Source: Naegleria gruberi (taxonomy: Eukaryota). From it: DNA of 64,000 nt. The stretch is from NCBI GenBank assembly GCA_000004985.1, contig GG738889.1; one strand, given 5' to 3'. Position 1 is the stretch's first letter, and every line of letters starts with the position of its first letter. Both the position numbers and the translations under genes were made by a program. The notes beneath the pieces are model-generated. The model saw only the letters and a program-made list of their open reading frames with translations. It did not search any database and had not been told where the DNA came from. Shown here piece after piece: positions 25,125 to 63,060 of this stretch.

Positions 25125-25833
25125 CTAAGCATATTGGTAATAACCATTCATTTCTATCATTTTCGTCTCTTCTTCATTAGAGTGCTTGTTGTATCGAATT
25201 GTTTGAGCTATTAAGATGGTAACAAGTCCAACCATAGAAATGCACAGCACTGAAACCACTATTGCAAGAATAGTGATTGCTATATCTTGACCTTGGTCAC
25301 TGGATATATGGACTGAATCACTTGGTTTTGGATGATAGTTGGTTCTGGTCTTGGAGGAGTTGGAGTTGGAGGAGTAAGAACTTTGGCAACAATCAACAAG
25401 TCATACCTTTCAATTAGAATAGTTTCTGAACATTTAAGAGTGATAATTGTTCCATTCTTAATGTCCTTAATTCCATAAATAACTCTATCAGATAGAATGT
25501 AGACACATTGAAGTGATGAAATGTCAGATATCGTATTTCCATTCATGTCTCTCAACTGATCAGTGAATGTGAAAGTTCTATCTGTAAGAATGTCAGATTT
25601 AACTGTTTGTACAATGGAAAAACCTTTAACCTTTTGAAAACCTTCCAACAGAGTTGAATCATGATTTCTTTATNNNNNNNNNNNNNNNNNNNNNNNNNNN
25701 NNNNNNNNNNNNNNNNNNNNNNNTTGTCATTACCTCTCCTCTCACAGCATGCATGATGCAGTGAATTGTTAAGAGTGCCAATGAGCACCACTACACGTTT
25801 AAGGATGCCCACTGCTATTGAAAATAACAACAA
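25125..25833 (-). CDS. predicted type I membrane protein (signal peptide, Thr/Pro stalk, one TM, short tail), broken by a scaffold gap and a probable frameshift
   Basis: ATG at 25833..25831 gives MLLFSIAVGILKRVVVLIGTLNN (signal-peptide-like), then the N gap 25674-25723. The main ORF 25280-25648 ends ...TPPTPTPPRPEPTIIQNQVIQSIYPVTKVKI*. The +2 frame stays open across that stop and encodes QDIAITILAIVVSVLCISMVGLVTILIAQTIRYNKHSNEEETKMIEMNGYYQYA* (TM plus tail), with a stop at 25127..25125. Confidence 0.4.
25674..25723. other. assembly gap (50 N)
   Basis: Run of N. Confidence 1.
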
Positions 25834-32213: not shown

Positions 32214-34905
32214 TTATTGTTGGACTGGAGCTTGTTGTTGTTGTTGTGGAGGAGCTTGTTGCTGTTGTTGTTGAGGAGCTTGTTGCTGTTGTGGAATTTG
32301 TAAATTCATACCATAGTTCATCATTGCATCCATGTAAGGATCTCCTAATGAAGTCTGACCAGGTTGACTTCCATATTGAGATGGTTGTGTTTGACCTGGG
32401 TATCTACCATTAAACACCAAAGGTGAACCAGAAGTTGGAGAACCACCATTAATGGAAACGAAAGGTTGAGGGTTATTGTTATACGTTTGTTGTTGGTAAG
32501 GATCATAACCACCTTGTCCATAACTTTGTGGATATTGTTGACCGTATCCTTGTTGAGGATATTGTTGACCATATCCTTGTTGAGGATATCCTTGTTGTGG
32601 ATATTGTTGACCATATCCTTGTGAGGGTAACCTGTGNNNNNNNNNNNNNNNNNNNNNNNNNNNNNNNNNNNNNNNNNNNNNNNNNNGGTATGAGTGATGA
32701 AATTTGTCCTTGATGTCATTTGCAATGGATTCCTTGTTGGTGAACTATCAATTTTTGGATACGAGTACTATATCAGAAATATTGAATAATTTGAATTTCT
32801 TCTTGGATTATGCATTATCAGATGAAAATGTGAGAGTTTCAGTAGGTGTGGATACCTTACTTGATAATTGTATTGAATCTGCTTACAAATATATTAAGGA
32901 TCGTCAATATGTCAACAATCAGACTTCAAACTCTTATTATTTACATGCTGCACTCAAGAAAATATCCATGCTTCAAGCAAGAAGCTCTGCAATTGGAAGT
33001 TCTGGAAAGAGTAAGAAGGGTCCTTTCTTTTCTTCTGTTTTACATAGGAATACTGTATATGATTTCCCAAAATCTATTATTGACCCTGTTACAGAATCTA
33101 AAATAGTATTCTATTCTGATTTCTTTTCATTTGCTACTTTAAGTTCAACGATTGTGAAGAAACCTTTCGTTTCAGTACTGACCGTTTCGGATGATGTGTT
33201 TTCACTGAATAGTAGACTGGAAATGACTCATATATCTGAAAGTCAAACCACGTATTCGAAACTTATTTCTAGAATTGTGTCTATTGATTTCTCAGAACTG
33301 CCAGTTCAAGTAAATGGGAGTAAGATTTCCTACATCATTCCTTATAACACTACTGACAAAGAAGAACCAGCTCAATTTGCCAATTTAGAGTTACTTGAAA
33401 AGAACACAACTGTCACTTGTGGAGATTTCAGAAATGGATCACCAACCATCTTGAGAAGTGATTGCACATTACAAACAAGAAATACCACTCATGTGGTTTG
33501 TACATGTGTTAGTTTTACAAATGTCTTTGTTGTAGAAACTACAGTTGTGACCTATCATTCCTATGTCTATGTGGTTGCCATTGTAGTTTCTTCCATTGTA
33601 GCTTGTGTTTTATTCTTGCTGATTGCTATTGGTGTACTCGTCTCGATCATTAAAATTAGGAGAAACAAAGGAACAACTGCCAACAAACCAGAAACAGTAA
33701 CAAATACTTCAACCTTCTCACTCAGAGTTCAGGAAGTTGAAATTGAAACATCATCCTATGGAAGGGGTCAAACNNNNNNNNNNNNNNNNNNNNNNNNNNN
33801 NNNNNNNNNNNNNNNNNNNNNNNCTGTTGACCATATCCTTGTTGTGGATATTGTTGAGAATATTGTTGAGGATATCCTTGTTGTTGAGGGTAACCTTGTT
33901 GTTGCATTTGTTGAGGATATCCTTGTTGTTGTGGATATTGTTGCATTCCTTGTTGAGGGTAACCTTGTTGTGGATATTGTTGAGCATAACCTTGTTGTTG
34001 TGGATTTCCCTGTTGATAGCCAGGATAACTAACACCAACTCCAGCATTTATCAATGGAACAGTTGTTTGACCTCCTTGTTGAGTAGCTTGACCATATTGA
34101 CCTTTAATTTGGGTCATGTATTGAGTAAGGGTCGAAATAGATTGTTGCAAGCTGCTCCAATTAGCTTGTTGAGTAGATGTAACCATACTAGCAACGAGAG
34201 GTGTAATTTTATCCTTAATGAGGGCTGCATCATCTTGATCCAACAATGAAGGATCTGCTGCCAACAATTTGAGATTAGTATCAATGGTATTTACAGCATT
34301 ACTAACAAGGGCACAAGGGGAAATTGTTGACTGAGAAACAGGTTGTTGGCTTACTCCTTGTTGAGTATTTGGTTGCATGCCACCTTGTTGTTGAGGATAA
34401 CCTTGTTGCATTTGTTGAGGATAACCTGTTGTTGCATATTAGGCTGCATTTGTTGCATTCCTTGTTGAGGACTTTGTTGCTTTACTCCTCTGGTAATTCT
34501 AGTTTGTCCAATTGGAGTTGGAGGAGCTTGACCTTGTGGAGCAGGTTGATTTGGATTGGAACTCATTTGAATAGTTGGCTGTTGTTGGGATTGTTGAGAT
34601 TGTTGAGAGAAACAATATTGACCCAATCTATTAATCATGGAAATTTGAGTATTAATATTGTTAACATAGACACCAAGCTTGTTACTACTGGATTGCTGTG
34701 GTTGTTGGGATTGTTGGGATTGTTGAGATTGTTGAGGTTGTTGTGGTTGTTGCGGTTGCTGAGGTGGCTGAGGTTGCTGAGATTGCGACGGTTGAGTAGC
34801 TGCTTGTGCATTTGCTGAGGCAGATGCATCCTGAGCATTCACAACACTCAAGGCAACTAGACATAACACGAGGGATAAGCCCAATATATACTTTGGAGTG
34901 ATCAT
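32214..34905 (-). CDS. secreted Gln/Tyr/Pro-rich repeat protein (QQGYPQQ / GYGQQYPQQ repeats), interrupted by two gaps, an inserted foreign contig and a 1-nt frameshift
   Basis: ATG at 34905 gives a signal peptide, MITPKYILGLSLVLCLVALSVVNAQD, then a Q/S/P-rich region. An apparent single-G deletion near 34418 sits in ...caacagGttatcctcaacaa. Next comes a helical block, NAVNTIDTNLKLLAADPSLLDQDDAALIKDKITPLVASMVTS...QIKGQY, and a QQGYPQQ repeat array running into the gap at 33823. The same repeat frame resumes after the gap at 32636 (GYGQQYPQQGY...) and runs to the stop at 32216..32214 (...QQQQQAPVQQ*). Confidence 0.5.
32637..32686. other. assembly gap (50 N)
   Basis: Run of N. Confidence 1.
32687..33773 (+). 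pseudogene. isolated ~1.09 kb contig, between two gaps, that is a near-identical copy of the 3' part of the receptor gene (51055..52142); probable mis-scaffolded allelic/paralogous fragment
   Basis: The track ORF 32704-34032 protein (MSLMSFAMDSLLVNYQFLDTSTISEILNNLN...HVVCTCVSFTNVFVVETTVVTYHSYVYV...SYGRGQ) matches ORF 50569-52320 residues from about 164 onward, with only scattered substitutions. The nucleotide sequence 32687.. versus 51055.. differs at only a few percent of sites by eye. The copy ends exactly at the N runs on both sides and is embedded, on the opposite strand, inside the Q-rich repeat gene. Confidence 0.6.
33774..33823. other. assembly gap (50 N)
   Basis: Run of N. Confidence 1.
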
Positions 34906-37337: not shown

Positions 37338-40300
37338 TTATGATATTTTTTTTAAAATGGTGACAGAATTTAATCGGAGTTCTTTAATGGTATCGGAAAC
37401 GGAAGTGTTTATTTGAAAATTGTAACTGATCTGATTACATTCTTNNNNNNNNNNNNNNNNNNNNNNNNNNNNNNNNNNNNNNNNNNNNNNNNNNNNNNNN
37501 NNNNNNNNNNNNNNNNNNNNNNNNNNNNNNNNNNNNNNNNNNNNNNNNNNNNNNNNNNNNNNNNNNNNNNNNNNNNNNNNNNCTGGTACCCAAGGTGCTG
37601 GTGGATTACATCCACCAATTGGTTCAATATCATCAGAGTGAGTAATTACGAGGGAATAATTTTGGTTCTTCAGCAATTTGTAAGCTGTTACTGAAACACC
37701 AACAAGTATGTCTTCATCAATTTCCTCAATTCTGACCTTTTCAACGTTATTTAAGTGATCACCGTCTGAGTTGTCATTTCCTGGATATCTAGTTGATCTT
37801 GTACTATTTTCTGAGAATACATAGGCATTCAAATCCAAATCTTGATAAAGCTCAAACTTGGTACTTGTGGCAGCCATGTCATACCAAGCAATTGTGGCAT
37901 ATAGGAATGTAGATCCAGAAGATGGTGATCTACCTGCAACTCTTCTAAAGCAATAGTTTTGTGTTTGACTTTGTGTGATGGTCTTTCTATCAACTGTGAA
38001 TAATTCAAAGGTTGAACCAACAAATTTAAGAACTGAAGACAAGGAAACGAGACCAAATCCAGTATAAGCATTTGGATAACCCATCTTTTTAAGGTCAGAC
38101 ATTGAGCCTCTTCCATCAAGTGACACCATACCCTTCAATGGTTGTGAGGAATGAACAAGGGTGGCTTTAAGCAATGGTCCAGATGGATTACTATGAACAG
38201 TACGAGTCATAAAATATTCACGAATGAGAGCTGTAACATGTTAATAAAAATTCAAATAATTCAATGATAACATACCCAAACTTGATGCAACTAGAGGTGT
38301 TGCCATGGAAGTTCCTCTGAGTGTCAATACAGATGCTTTGTTAGTTGGGGTTGGTCTTCCTGTTCCACATTGGAAAGTACTGAGACTACCATCAGAGTGC
38401 ATAGATTCAATTTCATAACCAGGAGCAACAAGATCAGGTTTGATTCTGTTACCAATTGCTGGTCCACGTCCAGAGAAGTAAGCTAAATTTTCCTTTGTAA
38501 AGTATTTCTTACTGTCAGAGTAAGTCTTCTTCATAAAAGTGCTGCAGCACAATGATTTAACAAGGTTGGTCTGGTCATCTGTTGTTCCCTTAAAGTTACA
38601 ACATTCCTCTTCTGATGAAACCTTGATGGCTTGGAAAATACTGGTAAAATCAACATGGTCAACTGCACTGATAAAACCGTCATTTGTAGTTTGAGAAGCA
38701 CCAACACTGATAACATTCTTTGAGGTGGTTGGACTACCAATATTACCAACATCAGATGTATGTCCTTCGTTACCAGCTGCAAATAAGACAACAAAATCAT
38801 CATGATCCCATGTGAATTTGTCGATATCTTGAGCTTTGGTATCATAGGTATTACAAATTTGGCAGCAAGATTTTCCAAACATTGTTTTACAGAAATCATT
38901 TGAAACAGTCTCTCCTGTTTTACCATAGTCTGTATCAATTGCCCATTTACAATTACAATTATATTTACAATTAAACACTGCAGAGAAAGAACATCCCCAA
39001 CTATTGGAATGGATTCTCACGTTTGCCTTTTGATATGGAATCTTGAACAAGTAATTGTACAAATCAGGTGGAATGAGAAGACTACTTCCTCCAGTTTTCA
39101 TAATGTCAGTAAAGAAGAGCTTGGCACCTGGTGCACCTCCATTATACTTTTTAAGATCTGAAAAAGTATCTGCACTTGTCAAAATGCTTCCAGCAATACT
39201 GCCAGCAACGTGAGTACCATGTCCATCACCACCATCTTGATCGTCTGACTTGTAAATATTTCCATACTTATCTTCGAGAGCCACAGTTTGATAAGAGACA
39301 ATCTTTCTGTGTTCCATATTGACAGTGTTGACTGGAACTTCATTATCAGGATCATGGAAGAAGCATTGGTCAGAATCAATACCAGTATCAGCTACACCAA
39401 CTACAACTCCCTTTCCTGTAATTCCATTCTCCCAAATGAATAAATTTGAGCTAGAATTGGCAGTGGTTGGAGTATCAGCATTAATTCCTTGCATAATAAT
39501 ATTTGGATAATAGTTCATGAGAGTGTATGGAAGTTGTCTTTCAACGCTTTGGATAGCATCATGTTTCATGATAATCTTCATGGCTTCAGAGGCAATCTTT
39601 GGAGAACAAGTGAACCCGATTCTATCTTGACCTTCCTTCTTGACTGAAAAGAATAGTGGTTCTTCATCCTTGGATAATTTGGCAATTTCGTTTGAGAACT
39701 TTTCTTGCAATTCCTTATTCAACTGAGAGACAATTGTTTCTGTTTCCTTTTCAATTGTTTCATCGAGAATGGCTCTCAAACTTGGAGTAATAGTGGCAAA
39801 AACTGAAATATGTGAAACAATAGATGATGCCACTGCACGAGTATGCCTATTTAGATTGGAATTTGCCGACTCGAATCTAGTTAATTTTTCAAGAGTTTCC
39901 TCCAATGTAGTTTCCTTAATTTCTGTTTGAGTCGTGGCAGCTTTGTTTTCCCACATTTCCTGCATCTTGGTAAAATCAAGATTGGATTTGAATTTAGAAT
40001 CAACTCTTCCAATCCACTCGATAGTGGATCCATACTCTGTTTCAATAGAGGCAAGTTTGGCCAACTCGGACATTTCGGATGGTGTTGCTCTAATAGCAAG
40101 GAGAACACCATTGGAAAGTGTTCCAATAATTGAATGCTCCAAAGCTTTTCCGAGTCTGTTGGCGGTAATTGCTACATTATTTACAGTATTAGTATTTACA
40201 GTCAATGCATTCAAGAGAGCACCATTAAACTTTGATAAATCCAAATTTGAGCTAGTTAATCTTACAAAGTATTGAATTGGTTCTTCTTTAGAATCTCTTG

Positions 40301-48706: not shown

Positions 48707-51700
48707 ATGCCAATTTTCATAAGGAGAACTACTGGGAGAGAACATTGTTTATGTAATACTAATAGTGAGGGATTGAGTAGGAGCTTGAAATCATCGCATT
48801 CACCTCAATATAATATTAATATTTCACAAAACTCATCATCAATTACTTCATCAAAACCTGCTTCATCGATGGTGAGGAATAAGACTACTATTTATACATC
48901 GATATTTCATATATTAGTTGTATGTCTATTCTTCCTACCAACTTGGTTTGCAGTTGTACTTTATGTGAATGCCCAAAATCAACCTTTCACATGTGGTGGC
49001 TATCTACCTGACGATGATAGAGTTTGTAATTTTAGAAAGGGAATGTGTATTGGAGAGGATATATGTGTTTGTTCAAATGGATTTCAAGGAGATTCCTGTT
49101 CTATAACCACATGTTTTGGTATAAGGTCAGATTCAACAAGTGTTTGTTCTGGAAGTGGATATTGTGAATCGTTGAATAATTGTACTTGTACATTGGGTTG
49201 GAAAGGTATTGCGTGTAATGAAAGAGTTTCAGATAGGAATAATCAATACAGAGCTTTGGAATCAAATAATTCCACAATTTCAGAGAATGTTGACTTTATC
49301 GAGGCAGTAATTACAATGCCAAATGTCAACCAATTCAGTTCATGTGGAGCCATTTCAGTAGATGGTTCTTCAAGTCACTCAGCAGATGGGAGACCATTAA
49401 TATATTATTGGTTGTTATTTGATTCGAAAATGAATTTACTTGCAGATAACTTCCCTCACCAACCAATCATTACTCTAGAATCGAGTATTCCATCAGGATC
49501 TTATAGAGTGGGATTGATAGTTCAGAATACTGTCTTGAAAATCAATAGTTCTATAACTGTTTCTCCAATTTTCACAAAGGCAACTTCACCACTTCCAATG
49601 TTGACCATGTATAGGGGAGAAACAGTGATTGAAAAGTATTCGAATGAGTTTCCAATAACATTGAAGAAGATTGTGAGTGATTCTTCATGTAAATCCTCAC
49701 AAGATGTTCTCCATATTGAATGGACCCAATTGAGTGGACCTTTCATCAATCACACTATTGATACTTTCAATAATTTGCATATTCCAAAGTTGAAAGTCTT
49801 TGGAAATTACACATACCTATTTAGAGTTTCAACATTTTACAAAATAAGTGCTAAAGTTTCTTTGAATGTGACTTTGAGTACAAATTCACCAAAATTGGAA
49901 TTGAATATTTTACAAACTGAATCTACAAGTGAGTTGACCACTTTACAAATTGATTATGTAGATCCAGAAGCTTTATATAATGAAGAATCGACAGAAGTTT
50001 GGAAATGGACTTCATCCAATCAAAGTCCTCAACTCTTAACAATACAAAATTTGTCCAAATCAAAATCTTTACAATTTTCAATTTCTTCTAAATTATTGGA
50101 AACAAGGGCTGATTCCATTATTTTAACTTTGGAAATTAGAAAGAGTGATGGAAGAAGTGTTCAAAAATCAACAACCATCAACTTTAACAATATTCCTCCT
50201 CTTGTAAATATTGTAAATATTGAACCACCTTCAAATGTCATTTTACCAGGTCAGCTCATTCCGATTCAAACTTTGACAATTTCAAACTCTTCGAACACAA
50301 CATGGATTCTGAATGGTAAGATTGTTGATTCTTCTTCCATTATCCAACAAGCTTCTCCAGGAATGGAAACAAATACCATCCTAATTGACTCTTCAAATTT
50401 GGAAGAAGGATCAGTCAACTCTTTAACAATAATTACCTATGATACCAAGACTGGTCTGTCAACACAGAATAGCCATTCATTCCGAGTAGCACAAATTGTA
50501 AGACAATTGATAACAATATTGATTACAGATATGGTTTTATAGACGATAGATCTCAATCAAAGATTGTAATGTACAATTTGGGAGAAGTTTACTCAACCAA
50601 AATGCCATCTCCTTTTACTGGAACATCTGTCACTTGTTTCTTTGATATTGTGGACAAAACCACAGGCGCATTCTCAACAACCTATTCCAATGTCACCATT
50701 TACAAACCAATCATTCAAAACTTTGCTGATATCCAATCAATTGTCCAAAAATGGGAAGATCAATCCATTCCCTATTCCTTAGATGGTGATTTCAGTAAGA
50801 GCATCTACCAATCAGCTTCCACTTCAAGAACTGATGCAGTTTTATTGAAAGAGGCCATGTTATCCAATAGTAGAAGTCATAGCCGTAAAGTTTCTGTTAT
50901 ATGCCTTAATGGTGTTGAAGTTTCAGGCGAGTGCAAATGTAAGGATGGTTGGATGGGGCAACGTTGTGAAATTTCCATTGGGGACTTTTCAAATATTCAA
51001 GGAACAAAGCTTTCAATATTGAGAGATATGATGTTTGTGGTGAATAGAACATATGGTATGAGTGATGAATATTTGTCCTTGATGTCATTTGCAATGGATT
51101 CCTTGTTAGTGAACTATCAATTTTTGGATACGAGTACTATATCAGAAATATTGAATAATTTGAATTTAATCTTGGATTATGCATTATCAGATGAAAATGT
51201 GAGAGTTTCAGTAGGTGTGGATACCTTACTTGATAATTGTATTGAATCTGCTTACAAATATATTAAGGATCGTCAATATGTCAACAATCATACTTCAAAC
51301 TCTTATAACTTACATGCTGCACTCAAGAAAGTATCCATGCTTCAAGCAAGAAGCTCTGTAATTGGAAGTACAGGAAAGAGTAAGAAGGGACCTTTCTTTT
51401 CTTCTGTTTTACATAGGAATACTGTTTATGATTTCCTAAGATCTATTATTGATCCTATTTCAGAGTGTAAAATAGTATTCGATTCTTATTTCTTTTCATT
51501 TTCTACTTTAAGTTCAACGATTGTGAAGAAACCTTTCGTTTCGGTGCTGACAGTTTCAGATGATGTGTTTTCACTGAATAGCAGATTGGGAATGACTCAT
51601 AAATCTGAAAGTCAAATCACGTATTCGAAACTTATTTCTCGAATAGTGTCAATTGATTTCTCAGAGTTACCAGTTCAAGTACATGGGAGTAAGATTTCCT

Positions 51701-52320
51701 ACATCATTCCTTATAACATTACTGACAAAGAAGAACCAGCCCAATTTACCAATTTGGAGTTAGCTGAAAAGAACACAACTGTCAGTTGTGGAGATTTCAG
51801 AAGTGGATCACCAACCATCTTGAGAAGTGATTGCACATTACAAACAAGAAATACCACTCATGTGGTTTGTACATGTGTTAGTTTTACAAATGTCTTTGTT
51901 GTAGAAACGACAGTTGTGACCTATCATTCCTATGTCTATGTGCTTGCCATTGTAGTTTCTTCCATTGTAGCTTGTGTTTTATTCTTGCTGATTGCTATTG
52001 GTGTACTAGTCACTATCATCATTAAAATTAGGAGAAACAAAGGAACAACTGCCAACAAACCAGAAACAGTAACAAATACTTCAACCTTCTCACTCAGAGT
52101 TCAGGAAGTTGAAATTGAAACATCATCCTATGGAAGGGGTCAAACACCTCTTGGTGTTTACGATACCATTACTCCACAAGAAAAATCTAATAGCTTTGCA
52201 GTTCAATCTGTTTATCATATGAATCGTAAGAGATCACAAGTGATTCCTCTTCGTATCGACTTGTTAGATGAGAAGTATTGTGATAACTTGTCGAGTAACG
52301 GATCTGATTGCGAATTATAA
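48707..52320 (+). CDS. large single-pass (type I) receptor-like protein, about 1180 aa: EGF-like modules, GAIN-like domain with GPS-like Cys motif, TM helix, cytoplasmic tail; 2 exons
   Basis: ATG at 48707, with an in-frame alternative at 48869 (MVRNKTTIYTSIFHILVVCLFFLPTWFAVVLYVNAQ, a signal/anchor). The EGF-like part is CIGEDICVCSNGFQGDSCSITTCFG...CESLNNCTCTLGWKGIACNE. A 65-nt intron 50498..50562 (GTAAGA..tcaaag, phase 0) joins the track ORFs 48707-50542 and 50569-52320 as ...RVAQI|IVMYNLGEVY.... A second EGF follows (CLNGVEVSGECKCKDGWMGQRCE), then a helical subdomain and the GPS-like motif C(SCG)DFRSGSPTILRSDCTLQTRNTTHVVCTCVSFTNVFVVE. The TM helix VYVLAIVVSSIVACVLFLLIAIGVLVTIII precedes a 95-aa tail. 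Confidence 0.65.
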
Positions 52321-52341: not shown

Positions 52342-54602
52342 TTATTGACCTTCTTTGATAATCTTGAAAAGCGAACTAATATTATTATTCTTAATTGCCT
52401 TTCTACATTCTGAAACAACACGATTCTTTGGTTCTCCTATTCTTAATCTAGCAGCTTTTTGAATCATTTGGTTGACTTCTTTCAATGCAGTTAACAATTG
52501 ATCGTGGTTGGTACTTCTCTTCTTGTATTCACCGATCAATCCCTTGTTGACACTGTGGAGTTCATTATACATGGATCTTACAGATTTCATATCTGCAATC
52601 ACTCTGGAATCTTCTGCTTTAATGACGTAGGCCTTAATAAGCTGAGAGCTATCAGCCATTTCAGCAGTCATCTTTAATCTGTTAGAATTATATTCTTCGA
52701 CACTTTGTGTAATCTGTTCGAACTTTTCAAATTCAACTGGGAAGTCACACTTGGAATCTAATTCCTTGATAGACAAGAATGCACAAACATCTTGGAATAA
52801 ATCACCAGCAACTTCCATATCGTCAACGCTGATAGTCATCATTCCGTCCTTGTAGAGTAATCTGAGAGGAGATCCATCCCTCAGACTTGTAAACTTGGCA
52901 TCTATCACATCAGCCTCTCCTTCAAGCTTAAATACAATGTTAAAAGATTCATTCAACCACATAATAATTCTCTTAACTCTTTCACCTAGAACGAAATTGA
53001 GAACAGATTTTGGAGGTCTAGGATGTTCTCCTGGTATGTACATTGCAAATCTAGGAAGTGTATAACTCAAGTTGAAGATGTGGTATTTAGAACCCAAGTT
53101 GAAACCAACCATAACTTGAATTCTCATTTCCACTGCAATGTTCTTTTCCGGTCTCAAACTGACCTTAATTTCATTCGATGGATTCTTAGAGTAGACCATA
53201 CTGGTATCTGTTGGGAAGAGTTGTTCTGCGGTAATGATTGCTGATCTGATAATATTTTCCGCATCGGTTCTAAAAACAATATCAAGACAATTCTCTTGAA
53301 TATTAGGATTCAAGTTACATTTGACCTTAGAGTCTGATCTAATAAGAGAAGAGTCAATATCACCATTCTTGAGCTTTTTAAGATTTTCCTCGTAGTTTTT
53401 AAGCTCATTGGTCAATTCTTCTCTCTTTTGAATGAGTTTTTCAATTAGTTCATCGAGAGAGGAATCTTCCACTTGTTTTGTAAGATTTTCCTGAGCTGGT
53501 ACATAACCCTTAAGGTCACCACTAACAGAACAACAAATCAATTCATCATGACCATCCATTCTATAATCAGCTACTATTAAACCAGCGACAGATTCCTTGA
53601 GAGAATCTTTGTGAATTAATCTACCATCTTCTTGTTTTCTTACTTCAAGTTTTCCACTATTATAACCAACAATAATATCTGGAACTCCATCTTTAAGAAT
53701 GTCGTATCCAACCATACCATTAACGGCACTCTTAGACTTATTTTTCCAAATTCTATTTGATCCTTTGTATAATCCATAAGTATTACTAGATAAAGCATAT
53801 CCAAAACTTCCACCATTCAAATCGCAAAGCTCTGTAACAGCTGAGGTTTCTTTACATTCAGCAATAATTGATTCGTCTTGATAAATATATATTACATAAT
53901 CGTCAGATCCTACAAGTAATTCATTCTCATTATCACCATTAACATCAGCCAAGCATAAAGAGGTGACATCACCACCTGCAGTAGTCCAAAATTGTTCCTC
54001 ACCATCTCCATCATAACCTTGAATTGAGCAATTTCCACCAACAAAAACAAGTGGATTTGCATGTGATCCAAGCTTTCCGAAAATCATTCTATTTACACCA
54101 TCTTGAACATCTCTGTAGTAAATATCCGAGTTTGTATCAACATTATAGGCCATCAAATTGGTTTGAGTACCAATCATCAAGGTTTCTCTTCTGACTCCTT
54201 GTTTAAAGGCGCCAGAGGCAACACAATTAACGTCCTTATTGACATTCAAGAAGGTTACTATTTTGAAAGAATATTACTAATATTTCTTCAATATTGGATA
54301 CCTACATTGATTTCCTTGATTTGTTTCATGAGGATTGTGTACCATCACCTTACCCGAACTAGTACCAGCAGCAAGACAAGGTCTATTTCCATCGACTAGT
54401 TTTCATATACAAAATTCATACAATCCAACATTGAAATACAATTTAATCAATCCAATTCAGGTCCATCATTGACCAATAAATCAATGAATAGTAGCATTAT
54501 CGTTCCGTAACTTCTTTGATGAAAGCACTTACATTTTCCTACTGCTACAGTTCCCTTCGTGATGGGGTGTCCCAAATTTACTTGAAAGGTTGGATTCAAC
54601 AT
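52342..54602 (-). CDS. BBS2: Bardet-Biedl syndrome 2 protein homologue (BBSome subunit); 3 exons
   Basis: Exon 1 (54533..54602; ATG at 54602..54600) is [23 protein letters not shown]. Intron 54396..54532 (GTAAGT..aactag, phase 1). Exon 2 (54306..54395) is [30 protein letters not shown] (human [24 protein letters not shown]). Intron 54258..54305 (GTAGGT..aaatag, phase 1). Exon 3 (52342..54257) is [16 protein letters not shown]...[14 protein letters not shown]...[13 protein letters not shown]...[13 protein letters not shown]...[25 protein letters not shown]...ELKNYEEN...LPRFAMYIP...[36 protein letters not shown]. It is collinear with human BBS2 along the whole length. Confidence 0.85.
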
Positions 54603-60543: not shown

Positions 60544-63060
60544 CTATGCCACAATACAACCACCTGTATTATTATTATTTGGTGCCTCAAAACTTGTATT
60601 TGGCATCATAATATTTGGTACTTCTTGGGTACATTTTTTCTTGCACTCAACCATAAGTTCCTTCAATGAGCTTATTGTGGATGGATGAGGTACCATACTC
60701 AAATGAACAATACTTAAATTTGGGCATGCCAAAATAAATTCCAATAACTGATCATAGGTGAAATCTGCTTTAAAATCAACAGCAAAAGGTGCTGAAAATA
60801 TGAGAACATTCATGCTTTTACTACCTTTCAAAGCTTGAAGTATTGGAAAAAGTTTGACATTCTTCTCAAATTTCAAACAAACTTTTTGTAGAGTACTCTT
60901 GGCATTAAGGACCATCTCTGATATCTTTAAAACTTGACTATTGTTTTCAATTTTAGATCCAAGAAGTTTCAAAGAGGTCAAATAACAAGTACATCTACTA
61001 GATAATCCCAATAAAATATCCAAGTTAACATTCTTTTCAATTTCTAATTCTTTCAATTTAATTCCTCTTTCGTTGATAATATCCAACACACTTGGGTCAA
61101 TTATTTCCGCTACGTTAAGGGATAAAGACACTATTGCTGAATTATTTTCGAATAGTCTTACCACTGAATCATCCACAGTTCCATAGACATCCAAATGATG
61201 TAACGAAGATAATCGACATGATCTGCTAATATAGTTCATCATATCAATATAAATATCCTGAATGTTGACAGATTTAGGAAATAGCAGAGTATGTAACTTT
61301 CTCATCTCAACAGGCACGCCTCCATTCATTGAAACATTCAGTGAATTGGATGCAATAGATGAGCCTTTCATAATGACATATTCCAATGTATCACAACTAC
61401 AAATCATCAAGTTAACCAAATTACACACAGGAACATTATTGCAATTTTGAATGGCAATTGTTTTGATAACCAGAGAATGAAATAATTCTTGCTTCATATT
61501 CGGATTTTCAACATTAAGGAAATCGCAGTTTGTCATTCTGAGATAATTCAAACTCTTACAATTCCTCCCTATCAACAATAAAATGTGTGAATCCATCGAA
61601 CCTAGATTTTCAAATGTCAAAATCCTCAACTTGTCAAAGGATTGCGAAAAGATCTCTTTTGGGACTCCAAATCTATTTTTTCTTTTAGGTCTGTAGCCTG
61701 TAGTAACTATCAAATTTGAGAGCTCTGGTGGTGATGACCCCAATTGTAATTCAATAGTAGTATTATTGCAGTTCAACATGGTAGCAATTTCCAAACAATC
61801 CGATGGAGCATGAATTCTTTCAAGTAATCCTCCACTTTGAATTTTAGGAAGAATGTAATAAATCACTGCAGTGAGAGCATCATATTTACATTCCCTGTCC
61901 ATTTCATATTCTGACACTTCAATGTTCTTCATGTTGGGAAATAGGATTGGGAAATCTGAATTGTTTATATTCTCCAATAGTTCTTCTATTAATTCTTGTC
62001 TTTGGGCTGAAATTGCTATTTGTCTTTGGTGAGCCTCACTGGGTCTGTAAATGAGAGTTTCTAATTTTGTCTTACTAAACTTTTCAATTACCTTGTCATA
62101 ATCATCAAACTTGATATTAATATTTACTCCGCCTGTTCCTTCTACTTCATGATATTCGAAATACTTCAAATTTTCAAATGTTTCGAAAATATCAATCACT
62201 GAAAATAATCGAGTTGCTCTTGCTGGAACATTTATCAATGAAATGTGAGATAATTTCTCCCTTAAACTTTTTGGAGCTTCAAGGGGATTAATTTGGGTCG
62301 TATTCTTATTAAATTCCACACTAAATGAAATGTGTATCTTTTCCAAATTTTCCAAATTGTTAACAATTGAATTGATTTCATGTGGCGACGATCCAATATA
62401 TCCAGTCAGGTATAATTCTCTCAGTGATGAGAAACTATTTTTCAAATTTGAATTCATAAAGGCAAGCACATTCAAACAAGGGGAATCACTTTGAGTATAA
62501 TCAACTGTTGCTGGTCCACAATTAAGATATAATCTTACCAAATGGTTCAGTTTTTCAAGAGATGACAGAGATTTCTTCATAGTTTCACTCTTCAAATGAG
62601 AAAAATCAATATTCCACAAATTCAAAGATAGCGCTCTACCCCCGTCTTCAAATCTCGAATCATCTTCAATACTTTCCATCAGATATTTCATCATAATTCC
62701 CATAAGATTTGGTCCAAATTTCTCCAAACACTTTAAACCATCCAATTCTCCAATTGCTTGATATTCACCACTAGCAATTCTAATGAGATATGGAAAATTC
62801 GATCCATCATTAAACAATTCACTTTCAATTTGTTTCTTTTCATTCAACTTGGAAATATAAGAAAAGGAATTGGAAACTGCCAACTGATGAAAGTACCTTC
62901 CGATCATGTAATCATTCATCAGTAAATATCTACCAACCATGGCACAATATTTCTTATTCAATGCCGTAAAACCCCTCATCACATCAAGAATATTTAAATA
63001 TTCAAATATTTCAAATTGAATTTCGATCGGAAGTTGATCAACCACAATCAAATCATTCAT
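60544..63060 (-). CDS. F-box / leucine-rich-repeat protein, 838 aa
   Basis: ATG at 63060..63058. The N-terminal F-box is LPIEIQFEIFEYLNILDVMRGFTALNKKYCAMV. The rest is LRR-like (…LKELEIEKNVNLDILLGLSSRCTCYLTSLKLLGSKIENN…). It converges on the BTB gene, with stops 7 nt apart. Confidence 0.65.
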   Translation of the reverse strand: MNDLIVVDQLPIEIQFEIFEYLNILDVMRGFTALNKKYCAMVGRYLLMNDYMIGRYFHQLAVSNSFSYISKLNEKKQIESELFNDGSNFPYLIRIASGEYQAIGELDGLKCLEKFGPNLMGIMMKYLMESIEDDSRFEDGGRALSLNLWNIDFSHLKSETMKKSLSSLEKLNHLVRLYLNCGPATVDYTQSDSPCLNVLAFMNSNLKNSFSSLRELYLTGYIGSSPHEINSIVNNLENLEKIHISFSVEFNKNTTQINPLEAPKSLREKLSHISLINVPARATRLFSVIDIFETFENLKYFEYHEVEGTGGVNINIKFDDYDKVIEKFSKTKLETLIYRPSEAHQRQIAISAQRQELIEELLENINNSDFPILFPNMKNIEVSEYEMDRECKYDALTAVIYYILPKIQSGGLLERIHAPSDCLEIATMLNCNNTTIELQLGSSPPELSNLIVTTGYRPKRKNRFGVPKEIFSQSFDKLRILTFENLGSMDSHILLLIGRNCKSLNYLRMTNCDFLNVENPNMKQELFHSLVIKTIAIQNCNNVPVCNLVNLMICSCDTLEYVIMKGSSIASNSLNVSMNGGVPVEMRKLHTLLFPKSVNIQDIYIDMMNYISRSCRLSSLHHLDVYGTVDDSVVRLFENNSAIVSLSLNVAEIIDPSVLDIINERGIKLKELEIEKNVNLDILLGLSSRCTCYLTSLKLLGSKIENNSQVLKISEMVLNAKSTLQKVCLKFEKNVKLFPILQALKGSKSMNVLIFSAPFAVDFKADFTYDQLLEFILACPNLSIVHLSMVPHPSTISSLKELMVECKKKCTQEVPNIMMPNTSFEAPNNNNTGGCIVA

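Follow-up and report, generated by a model that had tools for sequence, protein, structure and literature searches.

A gap-bounded second version of a GAIN-domain receptor segment inside a Q-rich gene of the Naegleria gruberi draft assembly, most likely a misplaced contig

A contig of 1,087 bp in the 2010 Sanger draft assembly of Naegleria gruberi NEG-M (copy A; 32687-33773, plus strand) carries a variant form of part of the receptor gene NAEGRDRAFT_71256, namely its GAIN-GPS-TM segment. Copy A is a real biological sequence; its presence at 32.6-33.8 kb, however, most likely arose as an artefact of the assembly instead of being a feature of the genome. We infer with good confidence that an allelic or very recent paralogous contig was set here into an open repeat gap. 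All positions refer to the window, the whole stretch of 64,000 nt that was analysed (G+C content 33.8%).

The window contains four runs of N (25674-25723, 32637-32686, 33774-33823 and 37445-37582), three of 50 N each and the last of 138 N, between which lie contigs of 25,673, 6,913, 1,087, 3,621 and 26,418 bp. The 1,087-bp contig is the smallest by far, and it begins and ends at 50-N gaps, as the preliminary description had stated: gap 1 (32637-32686) forms its left limit and gap 2 (33774-33823) its right limit. With three of the four gaps measuring exactly 50 N, this length looks like a floor or placeholder gap size. A search for long duplications in the window revealed only the pair formed by copy A and its counterpart. 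Two adjacent 447-aa ORFs at 28.5-31.3 kb were unrelated to each other, and no tRNAs were found in the window. The ORF at 52342-54249 (minus strand) corresponds with 100% identity to NAEGRDRAFT_71257, a BBS2 protein, whose scaffold measures 348,446 bp. A literature search for a paper on a long-read N. gruberi assembly found none, although Nanopore reads of NEG-M (R9 and R10) are publicly available as BioStudies S-BSST1363 (cited in PMC12344493).

The counterpart (copy B; 51055-52145, plus strand) lies within the intact receptor gene NAEGRDRAFT_71256 (XP_002673629.1; 48707-52320, plus strand), which has two exons and encodes about 1,174-1,182 aa. Its one short intron is located near 50.5 kb and copy B falls within exon 2. 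Alignment of the two copies, which run in the same orientation and match from end to end (E=0), showed 94.96% identical nucleotides over 1,091 columns. The differences comprise 51 substitutions and two indels, of 1 nt and 3 nt, and the amino-acid identity is 92.5%. The duplication and its match to the receptor at 48707-52320, both described in the preliminary description, are thereby confirmed. Its wording of a near-identical copy was too generous for a difference of about 5%, and of the limits that it gave for the counterpart (51055-52142) the start is correct, whereas the end has to be moved to 52145 because the two indels shift it. Homology to copy B reaches the first and the last base of copy A; the limits of copy A are therefore contig ends and not biological breakpoints.

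The receptor frame of copy A is open for 357 codons. The frame is broken only once, by the loss of a T at 32701/32702 (GAA-ATTT vs GAATATTT in the counterpart). This 1-nt deletion is so close to the contig start (15 nt) that it points to a read end of low quality. The other indel, a deletion of 3 nt between 33644 and 33645, is in frame and lies in the transmembrane (TM) helix (33565-33660, plus strand; VSII vs VTIII). Copy A is antisense to the gene that surrounds it, and each of its minus-strand frames contains 23-24 stops, the first within 17 codons.

The outer flanks of the two gaps hold complementary N- and C-terminal halves of a protein with a shared repeat type, and we conclude that they represent one minus-strand gene with an interrupted repeat array, which agrees with the preliminary description. 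The 5' half of this Q/G/Y/P-rich gene (33824-34905, minus strand) starts at 34905 with a signal peptide, followed by Q-rich sequence, a non-repetitive domain and a Q/G/Y/P repeat that reaches gap 2, where it ends with '...QQYPQQGYGQQ'. The 3' half (32214-32636, minus strand) is open from gap 1 ('QGYGQQYPQQGYPQQ...') to the stop codon. Tandem arrays at 32526-32622 and 33825-33997 adjoin the gaps, the former stopping 14 nt short of gap 1. The two arrays match and have the same orientation. The final ~20 nt of the left Q-rich contig are anomalous and resemble read-end errors. An interpretation of the flanks as two separate genes was considered and rejected in view of the complementary halves with one repeat type. 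A search for a dovetail between the two Q-repeat contig ends revealed none, only similarity of the repeat units. In a homology search with the Q-rich protein, low-complexity candidates prevailed and the one match obtained was meaningless. We attribute the gap inside this gene to a Q/G/Y/P repeat array that could not be assembled. In the genome itself this gene is probably continuous, without any chimeric locus.

The receptor carries a hydrophobic segment at its N-terminus, EGF-like repeats and a long extracellular region, in addition to the GAIN domain, a single TM helix and a ~95-aa tail. Copy A spans residues 163-526 of the 583-aa C-terminal ORF. This range takes in GAIN subdomain A from helix 2 on, the GPS-containing subdomain B, the TM helix and 38 tail residues. 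A single-sequence AlphaFold model of the receptor segment was useless (pLDDT 36); AlphaFold2 with a family alignment reached a pLDDT of 71 and a pTM of 0.67. The latter model predicts a helical subdomain (137-261), a beta-sandwich (270-454) and a TM helix (456-488), with a disordered tail. Five clear helices are seen in the modelled subdomain A (137-160, 166-180, 188-207, 217-235 and 242-261). Foldseek aligned the model with GAIN structures over 318-332 columns. The five best PDB matches, all of them GAIN domains, were BAI2, BAI3 (two chains), CELSR1 and latrophilin-1 (E 9e-11 to 2.5e-8), and the matches included 8oek, 4dlo, 8vy2 and 4dlq (probability 1.00).

Searches at the sequence level pointed in the same direction. 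A profile of 12 family members matched the GPS-TM region of ADGRL3 (E=2.3e-7) and a single-sequence search with the receptor detected ADGRD1 (E=4.8e-4), while the Pfam GPS and GAIN models gave no match on the receptor at E<0.01. The GPS cysteines C407, C422, C434 and C436 are invariant in the 12 family members and align to the GPS motif of ADGRL3. In copy A the GPS-like motif (33418-33519, plus strand) shows the four conserved cysteines and then C-T-C-V-S-F-T-N-V-F, identical in both copies. Family profile, AlphaFold2 model and fold matches thus bear out the earlier assignment of the copied piece to a GAIN/GPS-like region, a TM helix and the start of the tail.

The cleavage triad reads S-F-T in the receptor and R/K/Q-L/F-T in its paralogs, which keeps Leu/Phe and Thr and has no His; the H-L-T/S triad of autoproteolysis was not found in the receptor. 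Structural work has described six helices in subdomain A of latrophilin-1 and BAI3, and BAI3, which has no His either, is not cleaved (Arac et al. 2012, PMC3321182). Since the general-base position is taken by Ser in the receptor and by Arg, Lys or Gln in the paralogs, similar to uncleaved BAI3, autoproteolysis is not assured. A seven-transmembrane domain is not present after the GAIN domain, which is followed by a single TM helix. The receptor is a GAIN-domain protein and not an adhesion GPCR.

Divergence between copies A and B amounts to 8.4% (43 substitutions) in a core of 513 nt (alignment columns 237-749), compared to 1.3% before column 237, 2.3% in columns 750-963 and 0% over the last 128 nt. 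In the receptor frame, 23 synonymous and 26 nonsynonymous changes correspond to a dS of 0.101, a dN of 0.032 and a dN/dS (omega) of 0.31; the dS of the core is 0.196. A binomial test showed an excess of synonymous changes both for omega=1 (P=1.4e-4) and for omega=0.65 (P=0.013), the latter being a rough minimum to be expected if one of the two lineages were a dead fragment. Copy A has no internal stop over its 357 codons; in simulations, 25 random substitutions gave at least one stop in 73% of cases. With the 64%-identical paralog as outgroup, 9 derived amino-acid changes were assigned to copy A and 5 to copy B, and 12 were ambiguous. The omega of 0.31, the lack of internal stops and the changes on both lineages together imply that copy A stems from an intact, constrained gene copy. 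Neither the neutral substitution (omega near 1) nor the disabling lesions expected of a non-functional duplicate were found in copy A, whose only lesion is the terminal 1-nt deletion. It is unlikely (P=0.013 for omega ≥0.65) that copy A has been decaying as an antisense fragment within another gene.

The same pattern speaks to the idea that copy A is mere sequencing error, or low-quality sequence of the receptor locus itself. The 1-nt deletion, with only 15 nt between it and the contig end, would fit this idea, as would the last ~20 nt of the left Q-rich contig with their likeness to read-end errors. The 51 substitutions, however, are mostly found mid-contig and not at the termini, transitions and transversions occur at 25:26, that is at about 1:1 and not 1:2, synonymous changes are in excess and the other indel is in frame. 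Position of the substitutions, transition to transversion ratio and synonymous excess effectively refute sequencing noise, to which we assign a negligible probability.

An intact second version of NAEGRDRAFT_71256 could have reached the Q-rich gene in the following way. Copy A would be a separate shotgun contig from this second version, which the assembler may have been unable to merge with the first because of the 8.4%-divergent core of 513 nt. At the contig ends, which are 98-100% identical to copy B, the reads would have been merged into the main contig, so that the small contig stops. The scaffolder would then have put the orphan contig into the open gap 18.4 kb upstream of copy B. The piece is a short contig with gaps on both sides and homology up to both ends, and its flanks are continuous without it, all of which argues for an artefact. 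In addition, the source genome is heterozygous according to the literature (PMC3507753, PMC9928731), and the variant is an intact constrained copy (omega 0.31, P=0.013 against omega ≥0.65, no internal stop).

Every testable part of the scaffolding artefact suggested in the preliminary description held, and this reading is supported, if not proven. Of the origins that had been proposed there, a foreign haplotype or paralog contig is favoured over a real chimeric locus, given the dN/dS, the intact frame, the heterozygous diploid genome and an identity of 64% to the closest paralog found.

The displacement by 18.4 kb has no clean mate-pair explanation. Library geometry would place the mates of an allele at 51.5 kb at ~43-60 kb (plasmid) and at ~15 or 88 kb (fosmid), not at 33.2 kb. 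An ad hoc step therefore appears to be needed, the placement into the nearest gap able to hold the contig; the gap nearest to copy B (138 N) is too small for 1,087 bp. Scaffolders normally require clone links for a placement, and a position that would be unlike that of the mates of a 51.5-kb allele is a point in favour of a real insertion. According to this explanation, the Q/G/Y/P array 18 kb upstream received a copied fragment of at least 1.1 kb from the receptor gene (or from its diverged allele or paralog), e.g. by templated break repair, which would have left a disrupted chimeric locus, possibly in only one haplotype; junction reads discarded as chimeric would have given rise to the two gaps. 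This explanation is also in keeping with two gaps that each show the floor size of 50 N. In this case, too, contigs would break where the ends of copy A are almost 100% identical to copy B, and the family to which the receptor belongs has expanded in N. gruberi, with a further member on this scaffold.

We nevertheless consider a real insertion improbable. A dead antisense fragment would have to show a dN/dS of 0.31 since its divergence (P=0.013 against omega ≥0.65), and it would have to be free of internal stops and frameshifts despite 4.7% divergence. The divergence must therefore predate the insertion, which needs a diverged functional donor anyway and one more rare event on top of it. Furthermore, the Q-rich protein would be cut short after at most 17 codons of inserted sequence, and neither end of copy A carries Q-repeat sequence. 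Altogether a real insertion demands a diverged donor, a copying event into a coding array and the loss of both junctions in gaps; an artefact requires no more than a diverged copy and one error of the scaffolder at a pre-existing gap and is favoured for this reason.

As to the source of the misplaced contig, Naegleria is a heterozygous diploid (PMC9928731), and a passage in PMC3507753, citing Fritz-Laylin 2010, describes the heterozygosity of N. gruberi as a mosaic with a mean polymorphism of 0.58%. The ends of copy A differ from copy B by ~1%, which is allele-like and near this mean, whereas the core dS of ~0.20 is about ten times the value implied by it and extreme for alleles. The 90%-identity cluster of the receptor has one member. 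The nearest N. gruberi paralog, NAEGRDRAFT_75960, is 64% identical, further N. gruberi relatives are 41-45% identical, and none is on record between 64% and 92%. We favour copy A as the other allele of the heterozygous diploid NEG-M over a paralog, and give the allele about an even chance.

Alternatively, copy A may derive from a full-length, very recent paralog elsewhere in the genome, whose near-identical remainder collapsed onto NAEGRDRAFT_71256 and whose diverged core was orphaned and mis-scaffolded. We regard this as possible but doubtful. The core dS far exceeds the genome-average heterozygosity, several N. gruberi family members exist at 41-64% identity and gene conversion could account for the near-identical ends. 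Another member of the expanded receptor family, NAEGRDRAFT_71231, is located on the same scaffold, and a local duplication is therefore not implausible. In contrast, no second N. gruberi protein of at least 90% identity is on record, nor any family member between 64% and 92%, the end divergence of ~1% fits allelic heterozygosity, and a collapsed duplicate of several kb with a single diverged patch requires extra assumptions. In N. fowleri, BBS2 and its upstream neighbours are conserved at the syntenic locus and no receptor homologue adjoins BBS2, which indicates that the receptor is lineage-specific at this position.

If the two copies are alleles, the divergence peak of ~0.5 kb in the GAIN domain (8.4%, dS about 0.2, no less than tenfold the genome mean) between flanks of ~1% might even represent an old balanced polymorphism, a speculative reading that we consider rather unlikely. 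Were it true, it could reflect self/non-self or mating-related recognition at a Naegleria cell-surface receptor. To our knowledge a sexual cycle has never been observed in Naegleria and the evidence of sex is indirect only.

The draft scaffold probably contains a misplaced contig of 1.1 kb, which disrupts the gene model of a secreted Q/G/Y/P-rich protein and makes NAEGRDRAFT_71256 appear to have a second, partial copy. Copy A is worth masking in paralog counts, variant calling and read mapping. At the same time it reveals a second constrained version of a GAIN receptor with unusually high local divergence which, if allelic, is a candidate for balancing selection.

In comparison with the GAIN proteins of the adhesion GPCR and PKD1 families (PMC3321182), the receptor shares the order of a helical subdomain and a beta-sandwich that ends in a GPS motif before a TM helix. 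Its GPS cysteines, spaced 15/12/2, resemble in arrangement those of latrophilin-1 (19/12/2), which form two disulphides (PMC3321182), and its stalk sequence L/F-T-N-V-F resembles H-L-T-N-F-A. Unlike the members of these families it has one TM helix instead of 7 or 11, and it has no HormR domain.

The locus itself can be compared with two kinds of duplicated sequence. Like a genuine partial duplication or templated insertion, copy A is a fragment of one gene within a second gene of the same chromosome, and the gene family concerned has expanded in this lineage. It differs from such events in that no junction sequence is visible, constraint is found instead of neutral decay, and its limits are contig ends and not breakpoints. 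In 2010, Kelley and Salzberg reportedly addressed false segmental duplications and haplotig contigs as a problem of whole-genome shotgun assembly in heterozygous diploids. Compared with haplotigs, which usually lie beside their counterpart, copy A lies 18.4 kb away and inside another gene, and it diverges far more strongly in its core (8.4%) than the genome does on average (0.58%). It resembles them as a small gap-bounded contig that diverges from a second stretch of its scaffold at the level of alleles, with a divergent core and near-identical ends, in a heterozygous host and at a gap that was left by an unassemblable repeat.

The contig to the left of gap 1, the 50-N gap (32637-32686) that precedes the 1,087-bp contig interrupting the minus-strand Q/G/Y/P-rich gene, ends with 'ccttgtgagggtaacctgtg' in its final ~20 nt (32617-32636, plus strand). 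This end resembles 'ccttgttgagggtaaccttgttg', the unit of the repeat, apart from three T deletions; such a pattern is typical where a contig stops in the low-quality end of a read. Inspection of the reading frame of the Q/G/Y/P-rich gene revealed a 1-nt offset between the signal-peptide exon and the remainder of the gene at 34420-34440 (minus strand), near the junction caacaacag/gttatcct. Its cause may be an error made in sequencing the repeat, a very short intron or a genuine frameshift; translation from an alternative start at 34411 would give a product without the signal peptide. A Pfam search with an 838-aa ORF on the minus strand at 60544-63060 revealed no match at E<0.01.

The surroundings of BBS2 (NAEGRDRAFT_71257; 52342-54249, minus strand) at 44-58 kb of the N. 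gruberi window were compared with an N. fowleri locus (VFQX01000052.1, 468048-490410). Upstream of BBS2 the gene order is kept in both species, including CK2-beta, Maf and their neighbours. The N. fowleri locus showed no counterpart of NAEGRDRAFT_71256, the receptor gene that N. gruberi carries beside the BBS2 3' end, and harbours in its place a Nudix gene together with a gene of 832 aa.

The membrane protein encoded by NAEGRDRAFT_71256 (48707-52320, plus strand) has one transmembrane pass, carries EGF-like repeats and adopts a bona fide GAIN fold. A homologous-protein search with a 356-aa query detected no match, despite the presence of the NAEGRDRAFT_71256 protein P0107 (XP_002673629.1) as a 92% identical representative in the same collection; negative results of that search therefore do not indicate absence. 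In the collection of papers searched, none connects GAIN domains with Naegleria. The C-terminal GAIN-TM module is common to a family of at least seven large N. gruberi proteins (1,174-4,968 aa), NAEGRDRAFT_71256 among them. Their GPS triads, S-F-T in NAEGRDRAFT_71256 and R/K/Q-L/F-T in the paralogs, differ from H-L-T.
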